Part shown: positions 6,550 to 11,780 of the stretch, piece by piece | Position numbering within the stretch: the stretch's first letter is position 1 | How the letters are laid out: every line of letters begins with the position of its first letter | Assembly: GCA_048940925.1 (NCBI GenBank) | Contig: JBHLOC010000001.1 | Span: 201,158 to 265,157 of the forward strand | Length of the DNA: 64,000 nt | Origin: Promethearchaeota archaeon | GTDB taxonomy: Archaea; Asgardarchaeota; Lokiarchaeia; Sigyniarchaeales; SOKP01 | Direction of reading: 5' to 3' | Position numbers and translations under genes: made by a program | Notes under the pieces: model-generated | What the model was told of the DNA's origin: nothing | Database searches by the model: none | What the model saw: the letters and a program-made list of their open reading frames with translations, nothing else

Positions 6550-6761
6550 GCCTAAAATCCACTCAATTATAATTAAACTTTCAAACTATTTCAGCCAAAA
6601 AGAGTGATTTAGCTAATTAAGCATCCCTAAAAAATTTTTCTAAAACCACTTAAAATAATTCTAAATAAAAGCAAAAAATTTTTAGCAAGTGTTTCTAATT
6701 AATTAATTAGAAATTAATAACTTATTATTGTAATTAATATCATTTTTTGGAGAAAATTAAT

Positions 6762-7340
6762 ATGGGACGTCGAAAAAGAAAACAAGTCAGCCCCAAAAGA
6801 GTAAAAAGAGTACCTAAAATTTTCACATGTCCTGAATGCGGTGAAAAGAGTGTAAAAGTGATTGATATAAAAAAAAAAGGTGCTTTTGCAACTGTGAAAT
6901 GTGGAAATTGTGGATTAACAAAAGAAGTATTAGTTAATTCGATTTCAGAACCTGTTGATGCGTTTGGGGATTTTATTGATATATATTATGCAGATCAGGA
7001 GCTCCAAAGGTTAGAACGACGTATTCAAAAATTAAAAGAAGAAAATGAATGGGGCGAACTAGCATTATCATATTCTATCCTATCAGATCTTTGTAAAACT
7101 AAAGCTGCATTATTATTAGAAGAAGAAGATGTTAATTTGGATGATGTTAACAAATGGAAAATCAAGGCAGAAGAATATAAACAACTTGAAAAAAACACAA
7201 TAATAAAACTTGATGCCGATGAATTAGAAAGAGGTGTCCGGACTGATGAAGAATCTTTGTTTACTGAAAGCGAAACTAAAATAAAAAAAGAAAGAAAGTT
7301 AGATGACATCTTTGATGATCCTGGATTTCTAGAATTTTAA
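6762..7340 (+). CDS. elf1: Transcription elongation factor Elf1 with C-terminal extension
   Basis: MGRRKRK start (ATG 6762), FTCPECG..CGNCGL..EPVDAFGDFID. Confidence 0.88.
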   Translation: MGRRKRKQVSPKRVKRVPKIFTCPECGEKSVKVIDIKKKGAFATVKCGNCGLTKEVLVNSISEPVDAFGDFIDIYYADQELQRLERRIQKLKEENEWGELALSYSILSDLCKTKAALLLEEEDVNLDDVNKWKIKAEEYKQLEKNTIIKLDADELERGVRTDEESLFTESETKIKKERKLDDIFDDPGFLEF

Positions 7341-7516: not shown

Positions 7517-7972
7517 TTAACCCGATTGACTCTTTCTTTTAGCGAACAACTCTTTAAGCTCACCCATAATTGCACCTCTTAGAGATACTGGGCTTGCGGG
7601 ACGGTTTGGTGCTGGAGCCGACCCTGGACCTCCAGGTGGTGGCGGTGGGCCTCCAGGAGGGCCTCCTGGTGGACTGCTCAGCGGTGGACCCCCCGGTGGG
7701 GCACCTAATGCAGGTGATGATACAGTAGATGTTGCGGAGGTTACTGGACCACCTGCTTTAAGTGATGTAAGATCATTATTTATAGTTGTTAATTGATTTT
7801 GCAGATTAGTTACCCTTGTATTGACAGTTTGAAGACTTTGATCGACTAAATCAGAGATTTTTAGCACAATTTGCATTATTTTTTCAACAATATCTCCAAA
7901 ATCATTGAGTTTTTCCTCTAGCGGAGCTTTTCGAGTAGTCTCTAAGAAGGAAGCAAATTCTTCTGCACACAT
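7517..7972 (-). CDS. Coiled-coil + polyproline + C-terminal basic amphipathic helix protein (candidate actin regulator)
   Basis: Heptad region, PPGG repeats/PPPPP, terminal SLRGAIMGELKELFAKRK. Confidence 0.8.
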   Translation of the reverse strand: MCAEEFASFLETTRKAPLEEKLNDFGDIVEKIMQIVLKISDLVDQSLQTVNTRVTNLQNQLTTINNDLTSLKAGGPVTSATSTVSSPALGAPPGGPPLSSPPGGPPGGPPPPPGGPGSAPAPNRPASPVSLRGAIMGELKELFAKRKSQSG

Positions 7973-8102: not shown

Positions 8103-8738
8103 CTAACTTAACTCATCAATAGAATCTTTTAATTTAAGCCATAAGGTATTTATTTCATCTCTTACTTCAATAAATTGTGTTATTTTTTTTATTAAGATAT
8201 CACGGGCACGATCAAAATCTCGTTGAACATCATTTAACTCTTGGTCAAGAATGTTTAACTTATCTCCATCAATTAATTTATTTTTTGCTTTTTCAACATT
8301 TAAAGCTTTTTTTATTATTATTGATCTTTTACTCGCCAAATCAGATAGAGCATTGATAAATTCCTCTTTTTTTTCTACCAAATATTCTTTTTGAACAGCT
8401 ATATCCTTAATTGAATTCAAATATTTATTATTAGCTTTAATAAATTCATCATTTTTATGAATGATATCTTGATATAATTTAACTTCTTCATCTTTAATAT
8501 TAGATCTATGTTCACGAGCTAAAGTTTGCATTTGTTTTAAAACATCTCTGAAGGTTCTATTTAGCATTTCTCTTGCATTATTTGTTTTAGTGATATGTTC
8601 CGCATATCTTTTTTGAGTACCAATTAAATTGATCTGTTCTTTAGCCAATTTTTTAAATTGAGACACTAATTCTTTTTCCATTTTAGCTAGTTCTAATTCA
8701 TCTTCATGAGTAATAATAGGACTCATTATAAACCCCAT
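8103..8738 (-). CDS. All-helical coiled-coil protein, BAR-domain-like
   Basis: 211 aa, three long helical heptad segments; BAR assignment is inference. Confidence 0.6.
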   Translation of the reverse strand: MGFIMSPIITHEDELELAKMEKELVSQFKKLAKEQINLIGTQKRYAEHITKTNNAREMLNRTFRDVLKQMQTLAREHRSNIKDEEVKLYQDIIHKNDEFIKANNKYLNSIKDIAVQKEYLVEKKEEFINALSDLASKRSIIIKKALNVEKAKNKLIDGDKLNILDQELNDVQRDFDRARDILIKKITQFIEVRDEINTLWLKLKDSIDELS

Positions 8739-8818: not shown

Positions 8819-9853
8819 TTATACAGAGAAAAGTGAAGTTAAAATATTATCTCTATAATTTGCTTTTATAATTTTAACCTTGATGTTTTTTCCAATTAAT
8901 CTATTAGGATTAGATATTGATTTACTTAAAAGTATTTTCACCCCAAAATTATCATTTATTTTTCCAATAAATTCATTTTTCCAACGTCCTTTTGAGATCA
9001 CAGTTAAATTTATCATTTCATTTTTTTCTAATTTTGTAGAAATATCACTTTTACGTCTATGAATACCAAAATCCTTTGGACCAAGTTTCAGTTTTATATT
9101 ATATTTTTTTTCTAAATTGGTTAATTGAGTATAGAAATAAGCCCAACTTTTAGGTTGTATTTTTTTCAATTTTCTACCAGTTTTATAAATTAAATATTTT
9201 TGTATACCAATTTGAATTTTATTATCAGAATAACCTTTCTTTCTTAAATTAATTATAAACTTAATTACATCTTCGATATCTTGATCATTTTCTCCAGGAA
9301 ACCAGACTGGAGCAATAAGTAAATCAATATTAGTATTCAATAGAAAATGTAAATTTTCTATGAGATTATTAATATTATAATCATGACAATTACTTAAATA
9401 ACTGGATTTTTCTTGATTTAAAGAATTAAGACTAACATTTATTCGAGTTAAATGAACTCTTTCAAGATTTTCAATAACTTCTTTTTTTAGTAATAATCCA
9501 TTTGTTTGCATTGAAATAATTTCAATTCCTTTTATTTTCCAGAGATAATCGATCAATTCAAACAATTTAGGATAAAGGAGAATTTCACCATAAGGAGCTA
9601 AATGAATTTCAATCTTGTATTTTCCTTTAATTTTAACTATTTCTTTTACTTTTTCTATTATATACTCTGGATCAACAATAAAATTAGTGAGATAATCTCC
9701 AGCTCTCACAAAACAGTATTTACATTTCAAATTACATAAAGTTAGAGGTTTGAGTTCAATAACATTTGTACCCCTATCAATAACGCCAATAAAATCTATG
9801 CCATATAAAGGGATTTGTGACTTTTTATCCACATAAATTATTTCAGGTTTCAT
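8819..9853 (-). CDS. Radical SAM protein with probable C-terminal TRAM-like beta domain
   Basis: CNLKCKYC, MQTNG; archaeal family starting IPLYGIDFIGVIDRGTN. Confidence 0.85.
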   Translation of the reverse strand: MKPEIIYVDKKSQIPLYGIDFIGVIDRGTNVIELKPLTLCNLKCKYCFVRAGDYLTNFIVDPEYIIEKVKEIVKIKGKYKIEIHLAPYGEILLYPKLFELIDYLWKIKGIEIISMQTNGLLLKKEVIENLERVHLTRINVSLNSLNQEKSSYLSNCHDYNINNLIENLHFLLNTNIDLLIAPVWFPGENDQDIEDVIKFIINLRKKGYSDNKIQIGIQKYLIYKTGRKLKKIQPKSWAYFYTQLTNLEKKYNIKLKLGPKDFGIHRRKSDISTKLEKNEMINLTVISKGRWKNEFIGKINDNFGVKILLSKSISNPNRLIGKNIKVKIIKANYRDNILTSLFSV

Positions 9854-10932
9854 ATCCTATCAAGCTTATATCGTAATATTCCTACTATTGATCCCAGATT
9901 TACTAATTGTTCTCCAGGGATATTTTCTGTACTCATGATGTTTACTGAACCTCCAGAATTTTCCACATTGGTTATAATTTCTTCGATTTTCAGCTTTTGT
10001 TCCTTATCTGTACCTCGAATCAATATATCTGCTATTAAAAGATGTTTAATTGCGCCTCGTTCTGATGCTTTTGAAACTTCGTTAAAACCAATAACCACTA
10101 AATCAGCGTCTTCCCCAAACTGAGAAAGAACCTTTTCAACTAGGTGTGCTTCTTGTAAAATTTTTGCTCTTTTTTTAATGGTAGCTAATTCTTTTGATTT
10201 TAAAGTCTCTATTATAGCACTTTCTGTTCCCGAACTTGCATGAAAAATTTTTATTTTGTTCTTATAAGTTGTAGTGGCTGAATTTTTTATATAATTAATA
10301 AAATGGTTTTTTGTATTTCCAGGTCCACATATTATTATCAAATTTATATCATAAGTCTCTAATTTTTCTTTTAAAATTCTCTCTATATCTCTAAAAAACT
10401 CGATTAATGCCTTATTTCTATAGGTTTGTTTGTATCTTTTACCAGGAATATTCTTTTTTATAGTTGCAACCCTTTCATGTCGAAAGTTAGTTATAAGAGC
10501 TAATGTTGCTAACCCAGTTTCAATGGCAATAATAAAAATAATAAAATTGCTTTCAAATTTTGAGCTTTCTTTCAATCGTCTTATCTCATGATTTAACCAC
10601 TTTTCTTTTATTATAGAAATTATATGGTTTGTTTCTATATTAAATGTGTGATAAGTGCCGTAACTAACAAAATCTTCAGGACCTTCTAATATTCTTCCTT
10701 TTATTCTTAACCGATTTGAGAACTCATGAAAAGAAGTACTTTCAACTTTTAATTTTAATCTCATTATTTTACGATCTCCCTTAGTACCTTCTTTAAGAAC
10801 AACTCTTCTTTGAGTTATAGATGAGACTTCGTCATCTTTACTAATTACATTATATAGCGTCCACAAGTCGTTAAGACTTTCAGTTTGAACTGTAATTTCA
10901 CTCCGTTTTTGATTGATACTTAAAATTTTCAA
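9850..10932 (-). CDS. pelA: mRNA surveillance protein Pelota/Dom34
   Basis: ESLNDLWTLYNVI, RLRIKG, YHTFNI, IPGKR, GILRY. Confidence 0.95.
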   Translation of the reverse strand: MKILSINQKRSEITVQTESLNDLWTLYNVISKDDEVSSITQRRVVLKEGTKGDRKIMRLKLKVESTSFHEFSNRLRIKGRILEGPEDFVSYGTYHTFNIETNHIISIIKEKWLNHEIRRLKESSKFESNFIIFIIAIETGLATLALITNFRHERVATIKKNIPGKRYKQTYRNKALIEFFRDIERILKEKLETYDINLIIICGPGNTKNHFINYIKNSATTTYKNKIKIFHASSGTESAIIETLKSKELATIKKRAKILQEAHLVEKVLSQFGEDADLVVIGFNEVSKASERGAIKHLLIADILIRGTDKEQKLKIEEIITNVENSGGSVNIMSTENIPGEQLVNLGSIVGILRYKLDRI

Positions 10933-11073
10933 AACTTGAATCTAACTCTTAAGGAGATACTTTTACTTAAAATTAATATACAGTATAAGATAAGCTTAAT
11001 TTTATATTAAATCCATAAAAAATAAATTAAAATAAATAAAAAAAGAGAAACATAATCATTAAAAACAAAATTT

Positions 11074-11229
11074 TTAGTCTTTTGCCCCTAAAGCTTCTTT
11101 AACTTTCTCTAATTCTTCCATGCGTTTCTTCTTCTCTTCCTCTCTCTTTCTTAGCTCTTCTTCATCAACTTTCTGAAGTGAAACACCTTTTTTAATTTCA
11201 TCTTGAAGTTCTTTATCTATTGGAGTCAT
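11074..11229 (-). CDS. 51-aa microprotein with WH2-like motif and charged helix
   Basis: Manual translation MTPIDKELQDEIKKGVSLQKVDEEELRKREEEKKKRMEELEKVKEALGAKD; fills the rimI-pelA gap; GGTG upstream. Confidence 0.75.
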   Translation of the reverse strand: MTPIDKELQDEIKKGVSLQKVDEEELRKREEEKKKRMEELEKVKEALGAKD

Positions 11230-11303
11230 TTTAATTTAACACCATTTCTTTTATATTAATGTAAAAAAATTAATTTTAATACTTACAGTTATTATAATAG
11301 AAT

Positions 11304-11780
11304 TTATTTATAAGTTTTAGTTTGTAGAGAGACCATATTCAATTCCATTAAAAATGCAGATTCTCCCGATTGATAATAATTTTCTAATATTTCTGGATTT
11401 TTTTTGAATTTAAATTTTTCATACAATTTAATCGCAATGTTATTATTAACTTGAACGTTTAAAATTACTTTTGTTATTTCATTTAATTTTCTTATATATT
11501 CTATTGCTTTTTGTAGAAGCAATGTCCCGTATCCTCTTTTTTGAAAATCTGGATTAATGAGAAAGTTAACTATATTCGCTTTGTCTTTATTTTCTTTTAT
11601 AACAACAATAAAACCGACTATTTTCTTTCTAAATTTACCGATCACTAATTTTAGAAACAAAAAATTATTAGATATCAAATTGCTCAATAAATCCTTAGAA
11701 AAGGCATTTACTCCAAACACACTTTGTTCAAGCTGATATATCTTCTTTAAATCCCGAAATTTCACCTTTCTAATTTTCAT
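11304..11780 (-). CDS. rimI: GNAT N-acetyltransferase (RimI/Ard1 family)
   Basis: FQKRGYG, NNIAIKLYEKF, YYQSGESA. Confidence 0.88.
   Translation of the reverse strand: MKIRKVKFRDLKKIYQLEQSVFGVNAFSKDLLSNLISNNFLFLKLVIGKFRKKIVGFIVVIKENKDKANIVNFLINPDFQKRGYGTLLLQKAIEYIRKLNEITKVILNVQVNNNIAIKLYEKFKFKKNPEILENYYQSGESAFLMELNMVSLQTKTYK

Follow-up and report, generated by a model that had tools for sequence, protein, structure and literature searches.

The closest described systems are the WH2 domain and the beta-thymosins. The WH2 domain (PF02205), found in N-WASP, WAVE, WIP, Spire and MIM, comprises a three-turn amphipathic helix and an extended, non-helical LKKV segment; a glycine lies three residues before L-x-K-V/T, and the characteristic positions are spaced as L at −10, I at −6, G at −3 and L at 0. 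It is used as a module in multidomain and tandem-repeat proteins. The beta-thymosins (PF01290; thymosin beta-4, ciboulot and actobindin) are stand-alone acidic peptides of 43–55 residues with an N-terminal helix, an LKKT-like segment and a C-terminal helix, and tandem-repeat versions exist. In Asgard archaea, an LKKT-type segment is known from the LKKT/LVDV linker of two-domain gelsolins, and crystallography places it on subdomain 1 of actin, in contact with Asp25 (PMC9433394; bioRxiv 10.1101/2025.11.30.690169). In the crystal structure of a Loki gelsolin, the segment was seen on Asp25 (PMC9433394); therefore, this site on actin can be used by such motifs. A trypanosomatid profilin carries a WH2-like insertion, and both elements of this single polypeptide contribute to actin binding (PMC10907219). 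Our full-text literature searches found Asgard WH2-like motifs only inside gelsolin linkers and no free, repeated or profilin-fused WH2/thymosin-like module. Nor is the family presented here described in the literature found on WH2 or thymosin in Asgards, on the MK-D1 locus tag or on Lokiarchaeum ossiferum microproteins.

We describe a 51-residue microprotein from a Lokiarchaeial genome that is probably a free actin binder of the WH2/beta-thymosin kind. It is encoded on the minus strand at 11074–11229 (stop codon included) of the window, which is the whole stretch of 64,000 nucleotides that was analysed. The open reading frame starts with ATG and ends with TAA. Exactly as annotated initially, the N-terminus reads M-T-P-I-DKELQDEIKKGVSLQKVD (residues 1–22 are M-T-P-I-D-K-E-L-Q-D-E-I-K-K-G-V-S-L-Q-K-V-D), and an E/K/R-rich stretch follows. 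The AlphaFold2 model, calculated with 120 sequences (pLDDT 83), consists of a helix at residues 6–13, a non-helical segment at residues 14–22 and a second helix at residues 23–48. The short N-terminal helix (K-E-L-Q-D-E-I-K, 11191–11214, minus strand) is amphipathic and aligns with the WH2 helices of N-WASP, Spire and MIM; L8 and I12 fall on WH2 positions −10 and −6 relative to L18. Residues 15–21 (G-V-S-L-Q-K-V, 11167–11187, minus strand) are the non-helical equivalent of the WH2 segment G-x-x-L-K-K-V. The long E/K/R-rich helix (11086–11163, minus strand) was predicted with a pLDDT of about 90. A Foldseek search of the 51-residue model against the PDB returned nothing informative. As read from the sequence of the same strand, a putative Shine-Dalgarno-like element, GGTG (11240–11243), is located 10 nt 5′ of the ATG, and T-rich tracts with runs of T5–T7 lie 3′ of the stop codon (11010–11073) as plausible archaeal oligo-T termination signals.

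The bare WH2 motif alone is no more than chance. For a strict WH2 regular expression, approximately 0.9 matches are expected per 1.5 million residues of the source genome; none was found in 5,004 open reading frames of at least 100 aa and two in 25,049 small open reading frames, one of which is the microprotein. The gene, in turn, is real beyond doubt, since the number of homologues, the ratio of synonymous to nonsynonymous change, the codon-position pattern and the conserved gene order (see below) place it far beyond chance. A search of 5.8 billion proteins gave 226 homologues of 49–51 aa with 75–96% identity. Across 28 orthologous loci, pS was 0.63 and pN was 0.076, with a median dN/dS of about 0.07, and variation was found at 41 of 43 third and 9 of 43 second codon positions. 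The initial annotation described the protein as unannotated; this does not hold everywhere, as several homologues have been deposited as "hypothetical protein".

An alignment of 120 sequences has nine invariant residues (I12, G15, L18, R29, R36, E39, L40, K42, L47) and conservation of at least 90% at another 21 positions, V16, K20 and V21 among them; L8 is nearly invariant. The positions of the L-x-x-(E)-I-x-x-G..L-x-K-V motif, on whose retention the initial annotation had staked its reading, form the invariant core of the family. The helix and the G-x-x-L-[KR]-[KR]-[VT] spacing of WH2 are kept in L8, I12, G15, L18, K20 and V21, and many relatives carry a literal LKKV. Position −9, the second hydrophobic position of the WH2 helix, is Q or K in the free microprotein. 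The E/K/R-rich part, which had been regarded as a mere charged continuation, is as conserved as the motif and contributes six of the invariant residues (R29, R36, E39, L40, K42 and L47).

When 400 Asgard genomes were searched with a profile, the family was detected in 150, almost all of which belong to a single order of Lokiarchaeia. It is present in 125 of 134 genomes of the source's own family and in 12/14, 4/4 and 1/1 genomes of three other families of this order; other orders of the same class gave 0 of 7, and only marginal matches were obtained beyond that. The family is essentially restricted to this order and is not spread over Asgards in general. The order includes the cultured L. ossiferum and Promethearchaeum syntrophicum. 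The L. ossiferum orthologue (WP_371806818.1, 55 aa) is encoded directly after rimI, and that of P. syntrophicum is DSAG12_00453 (QEE14640.1); both are labelled "hypothetical protein". In these two orthologues, two additional residues separate the helix from L-K-x-V, and another residue stands in for the glycine (E-I-E-Q-H-D-K-S-A-M-K-H-V); the spacing is of the beta-thymosin type rather than the WH2 type.

The similarity to WH2 domains depends on the direction of the comparison. The initial annotation had proposed the Pfam WH2 model (PF02205) as a check on its WH2-like binder, and this check was negative: no match to the microprotein was obtained at E ≤ 10 by hmmscan or in a six-frame search of the source genome, and relatives scored 13.3–13.6 bits against a gathering threshold of 23.1 bits. 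The Pfam Thymosin model (PF01290) matched no family member at E ≤ 10 in five genomes. On six-frame translations of the source genome and five related genomes, the WH2 and Thymosin models gave nothing significant and nothing better than in control genomes, and Pfam and NCBIfam scans of the microprotein yielded only chance-level matches. Profiles of the family itself, in contrast, retrieve bona fide WH2 domains, which supports the initial reading. Against 177,635 distinct PDB sequences, the microprotein profile placed a tandem-WH2 chain of N-WASP first (E=0.004), and WH2 chains of N-WASP and MIM were among the top five. A second profile, with 28 positions derived from 98 N-terminal halves of all four architectures described below, matched N-WASP (3m3n_W, E=9.7e-5; 2vcp_D, 0.0097; full-length N-WASP, 0.12) and Spire (E=0.056, 0.06 and 1.4) in the same set, and six of its best eight matches are WH2 chains. 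The similarity to experimentally defined WH2 domains is significant as a score summed over repeats; the individual repeats are weak, and the per-domain E-values of the WH2 matches are weak with both profiles.

The resemblance to beta-thymosins is of a different kind. With 51 residues, a net acidic composition (pI ~5.3) and the predicted helix, LKKT-like segment and C-terminal helix, the microprotein has the layout of a free acidic peptide of about 40–55 residues. In a comparison of ESM features, the nearest named clusters were Thymosin (PF01290) for both the microprotein (scores 0.86 and 0.85) and the L. ossiferum orthologue (0.87, with 184 of 256 features shared); these values serve as leads only. 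Pairwise BLASTP against a thymosin beta-4 sequence gave 9/23 identities in register (E=0.001), and phmmer with the P. syntrophicum orthologue found no thymosin match in the PDB. The orthologues of the two cultured species share the thymosin-type spacing (E-I-E-x-H-D-K-S-x-M-K-H-V). Unlike in beta-thymosins, the C-terminal helix of the Loki module follows directly, without a proline-containing linker, and is much longer. The module differs from eukaryotic WH2 in that the motif invariably precedes a conserved helix of about 27 residues, which eukaryotic WH2 domains lack, in that Q, E or A frequently takes the place of the first basic residue of LKKV, and in the polar position −9 of the free form and the unmatched Pfam model. 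The four-residue motif of the gelsolin linker has no preceding WH2 helix, whereas the Loki module is independent, brings its own helix, occurs free or repeated and is unrelated to gelsolin.

The microprotein profile, searched against 1.8 billion sequences, also matched one eukaryotic tandem-WH2-like protein (P0162, E=3.3e-5), the only clearly eukaryotic match of the Loki profile. It is encoded on a short metagenomic contig with GT-AG introns (L055:256-765, plus strand) and has three to four WH2 repeats that resemble those of actobindin and WIP. Three of them are of the type E-L-x-x-E-V-K-K-G-I-T-L-K-R-T-E-S-V-D-K-S-A-P, a eukaryotic actobindin/WIP-like pattern.

The microprotein is the free single unit of a module that is also found in tandem, fused to profilin and fused to LRR domains. 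The unit spans about 46–50 residues and consists of the short amphipathic helix, G-x-x-L-x-K-V and the long conserved E/K/R helix, which is retained in the tandem, profilin-fused and LRR-fused forms. The fusions were found by an exhaustive profile search of the library of 1.8 billion proteins and by genome searches; a search for longer relatives in a word-indexed collection, which was crowded by low-complexity candidates, found none. In the library, the microprotein profile matched the ten-repeat proteins with E=1.6e-17 and the profilin and LRR fusions with E-values of 2e-7 to 7e-4, and the homology among the forms that these values indicate is statistically solid.

Ten tandem units, all of which were resolved, make up proteins of 479–497 aa in L. 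ossiferum, P. syntrophicum and relatives. Examples are L031:2864-4327 (minus strand), which corresponds to G138:C1:4726364-4727827 of L. ossiferum, and L032:2812-4248 (minus strand) and P0126. L(−10), E, I(−6), L(0) and the arginine of the next helix are invariant across six orthologues, repeat after repeat. Position −9 is hydrophobic in these units (LL, IL or LM), which is the canonical WH2 pattern; they carry LL..I and often a literal LKKV. The AlphaFold2 model of the ten-repeat protein shows long helices joined by low-confidence linkers of 8–10 residues, which coincide with the G-x-x-L-x-K-V segments, and no compact fold (pTM 0.17, from a shallow alignment). Such a model would fit an extended, partner-dependent binding element better than a folded repeat domain.

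In the profilin fusions, one to four units stand behind an N-terminal profilin domain and are followed by a small conserved C-terminal domain (…Y-I-Y-D-D-F-Q-L-L…). In P0174, the profilin domain gave matches to Asgard profilins of known structure (5zza_P, E=9.6e-10; 7pbh, 5yed and 5zzb) and only a sub-threshold match to the Pfam Profilin model. P0174, P0144 and P0164 are library representatives without taxonomy; L033:2017-2790 (plus strand) is a further example, and genomic copies were found in genus g11 of the source's family. In the trypanosomatid profilin, the WH2-like element is an insertion of about 20 residues inside the profilin fold, whereas the Loki fusions add complete units behind the profilin and a C-terminal domain. 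The LRR fusions consist of an LRR domain, one unit and a ribbon-helix-helix-like or RING-like domain. One such protein is the second family member encoded in the source genome (G000 contig 78, 75975-77243, plus strand; L048:592-1860); it has 423 aa and a ribbon-helix-helix-like end, and its unit contains …N-G-I-Y-L-A-R-P-N-E-E-E…. In metagenomic relatives, a RING-like zinc finger takes the place of this end.

A predicted target is encoded in the source genome. Its five actin-family genes include lokiactin (G000 contig 40, 95706-96818); two of them score above 430 bits, and the best one, when aligned to eukaryotic actins, keeps Y143-A144-S145-G146-R147-T148, G168, I341, I345, L346, L349, T351 and M355. 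It also keeps D25, R28 and E334, with the substitutions D24 to E and Y169 to F. In known WH2-actin complexes, these residues form the WH2 site.

The strongest evidence for an interaction with actin comes from a preprint on the motility of L. ossiferum. It reports a Co-IP of Lokiactin and takes up no partners other than gelsolins, profilins, an Arf GTPase and BAR proteins (bioRxiv 10.1101/2025.11.30.690169). Entry GNAMCCOK_04085 of the Co-IP sheet (56.41 kDa; 44 peptides, 70.5% coverage, 366 spectra) has a log2(Actin/IgG) of 4.53 with an adjusted p of 0.0021, directly above Lokiactin itself (4.44), and was detected in all 16 whole proteomes, where its log2 intensity averaged 19.2 (bioRxiv 10.1101/2025.11.30.690169). 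The ten-repeat protein of L. ossiferum (488 aa) has a monoisotopic mass of 56.414 kDa, and the table values for actin (377 aa, 42.75) and 2DGel1 (322 aa, 36.60) are monoisotopic masses. Its gene lies 57 kb before that of 2DGel1 (entry 04136), and the local gene density predicts an entry at about 04083. From the mass match and the gene order, rather than from an accession, we infer that GNAMCCOK_04085 is the ten-repeat protein, which would then be expressed and co-precipitate with Lokiactin. If this identification is correct, the public data set contains the ten-unit protein among the strongest in vivo partners of Lokiactin, uncommented by the authors. The part of the Co-IP table that was searched has no entry for the 6.57-kDa L. 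ossiferum microprotein, which is probably missing from the annotation that the authors used. The enrichment concerns a ten-repeat paralogue of another species, and Co-IP does not show direct binding.

Taken with this co-enrichment of the ten-repeat relative, actin binding by the free microprotein is a well-supported prediction; direct binding by the 51-residue protein, its binding mode and its preference for G- or F-actin are what we infer from the likenesses above. The reading that we prefer, with a probability of about 60%, is that of a free WH2/beta-thymosin-like binder of actin. The short N-terminal helix would sit in the cleft between subdomains 1 and 3, and the extended G-V-S-L-Q-K-V segment, with its L-Q-K-V, would lie on subdomain 1, at the acidic patch that E24 and D25 form in the source genome's actin. 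A further specific contact may come from the long E/K/R helix, running along or away from the actin surface. The microprotein, a free peptide of 6 kDa, could bind actin monomers for buffering or delivery; in the fused forms, the unit might tether actin to profilin or to LRR proteins, and the ten-repeat protein could bind several actin subunits at once. The weak per-domain E-values, the polar position −9, the missing Pfam match, a bare motif that should arise about once in a proteome anyway, the translation-related neighbours and the ribbon-helix-helix or RING domains in some fusions count against this reading.

If the preferred reading is true, a module of the WH2/thymosin type would extend the pre-eukaryotic toolkit by the buffering or delivery of monomers or by nucleation-type activities, and it would bear on whether WH2-based actin regulation has a pre-eukaryotic origin or arose by convergence. 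Because the family is concentrated in one Lokiarchaeial order, its distribution favours a lineage-specific origin or convergence. However, a nearly invariant WH2-like motif in a Thorarchaeota family would weigh on the other side. This family of about 313 aa (L063:1168-1968, plus strand; P0184-P0303), of which 170 members were found, has as its most conserved segment an internal, canonical WH2-like Q-A-E-L-K-A-[SG]-[IV]-L-[GS]-G-[VI]-S-L-K-K-[TAV], located between two helical domains without a Pfam match. The Loki profile detects this motif at E=5e-4 per genome, and a profile of the motif itself matched only N-WASP in the PDB (E=0.33). A broader proposal is that the free microprotein, the profilin-WH2 fusions and the ten-repeat major Lokiactin partner constitute, next to profilins and gelsolins, a third class of Lokiarchaeial actin regulators, sharing ancestry, together with the Thorarchaeota motif, with eukaryotic WH2 and beta-thymosins; we regard it as tentative and rather improbable. 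The prediction for the microprotein is directly testable: L. ossiferum and P. syntrophicum, which are the best-studied Asgards in culture, each have an orthologue, and the protein is short enough to be synthesised.

The ten-repeat protein also raises the question of which form of actin is bound. The module might bind filaments with one subunit per unit, somewhat like nebulin repeats, in which case the free microprotein would be a side-binding stabiliser or competitor and not a monomer sequesterer. The ten regularly spaced units of about 46 aa, their modelled long helices with short linkers and a long helix as conserved as the WH2-like part would suit such an arrangement, as would the apparent recovery of the protein with Lokiactin, which is largely filamentous in cells. 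However, the family resembles WH2 and thymosin, which bind in the cleft of the monomer, its fusion to the monomer binder profilin fits the handling of monomers, and the avidity of a lone unit for filaments would be low. We therefore consider filament binding a minor possibility next to the free monomer binder.

A comparably small chance is given to a general helical adaptor, in which a charged single alpha-helix or a coiled coil would carry a short docking helix and bind some other partner; the WH2 likeness would then be coincidental, and the Co-IP indirect or misassigned. The E/K/R composition is typical of ER/K helices, the module stands between domains as unrelated as LRR, RHH and RING, Pfam WH2 does not match it and chance alone would give the motif about once per proteome. 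However, ER/K single alpha-helices evolve fast and have no conserved positions, whereas the present helix, despite its fitting composition, has six invariant residues in a protein with a dN/dS of about 0.07. Moreover, independent profiles return almost exclusively WH2 chains, the module is fused to profilin, and a top entry of the Lokiactin Co-IP matches the ten-repeat form in both mass and gene order.

The chromosomal neighbourhood points elsewhere. A RimI-like GNAT acetyltransferase (rimI; 11304–11780, minus strand; Pfam Acetyltransf_1) lies 74 bp upstream of the microprotein gene, and pelota (9850–10932, minus strand; eRF1 domains 1–3, Pfam eRF1_1/2/3) lies 141 bp downstream on the same strand; both are conserved neighbours by synteny, with radical-SAM genes beyond each of them. 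The order radical-SAM / rimI / microprotein / pelota / radical-SAM is found in 28 of 30 related loci (L001-L030), and rimI / microprotein / pelota also in L035, L038 and L054. At the syntenic loci, the microprotein is 78–92% identical, compared with 54–85% for pelota. In other orders, rimI and pelota lie near each other without such an open reading frame, and a search there for a divergent copy between the two genes found none. The gaps of 74 and 141 bp, the separate SD-like element and the T-tracts suggest a transcription unit of its own. If the microprotein acted in translation or in the rescue of ribosomes, or served the adjacent acetyltransferase or pelota as partner or substrate, this role would account for the gene order, which is invariant in family f1 and recurs in f3 and in genus g2 of f1, and for a conservation exceeding that of pelota, yet it is quite unlikely given a net acidic protein (pI ~5.3) unlike ribosome- or RNA-binding microproteins, its absence from other orders with rimI and pelota nearby, its paralogous units in profilin, LRR and actin-associated proteins, and the apparently separate transcription. 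A ribosomal or nucleic-acid-binding microprotein was rejected on the acidic composition and the narrow distribution.

Other genes of the window lie near the locus. An all-helical protein of 211 aa without a Pfam match is encoded at 8103–8738 (minus strand), and the Elf1-type zinc-ribbon protein encoded at 6747–7340 (plus strand) has a long acidic tail. A protein of 151 aa at 7517–7972 (minus strand) combines a coil at its N-terminus with a (GGPP)n/PPPPP tract, and its C-terminal helix, R-P-A-S-P-V-S-L-R-G-A-I-M-G-E-L-K-x-L-F-A-K-R-K, is invariant. Of 61 genomes of the order, 57 have this protein; in family f1, it is encoded about 3.3 kb from the microprotein gene. The family HMM gives no match to its helix, which resembles the N-terminal helix of the LRR-fused units (S-L-R-x-x-I-M-x-E-L-K). 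An amphipathic helix behind a proline-rich tract is the layout of WASP/VASP-type proteins.
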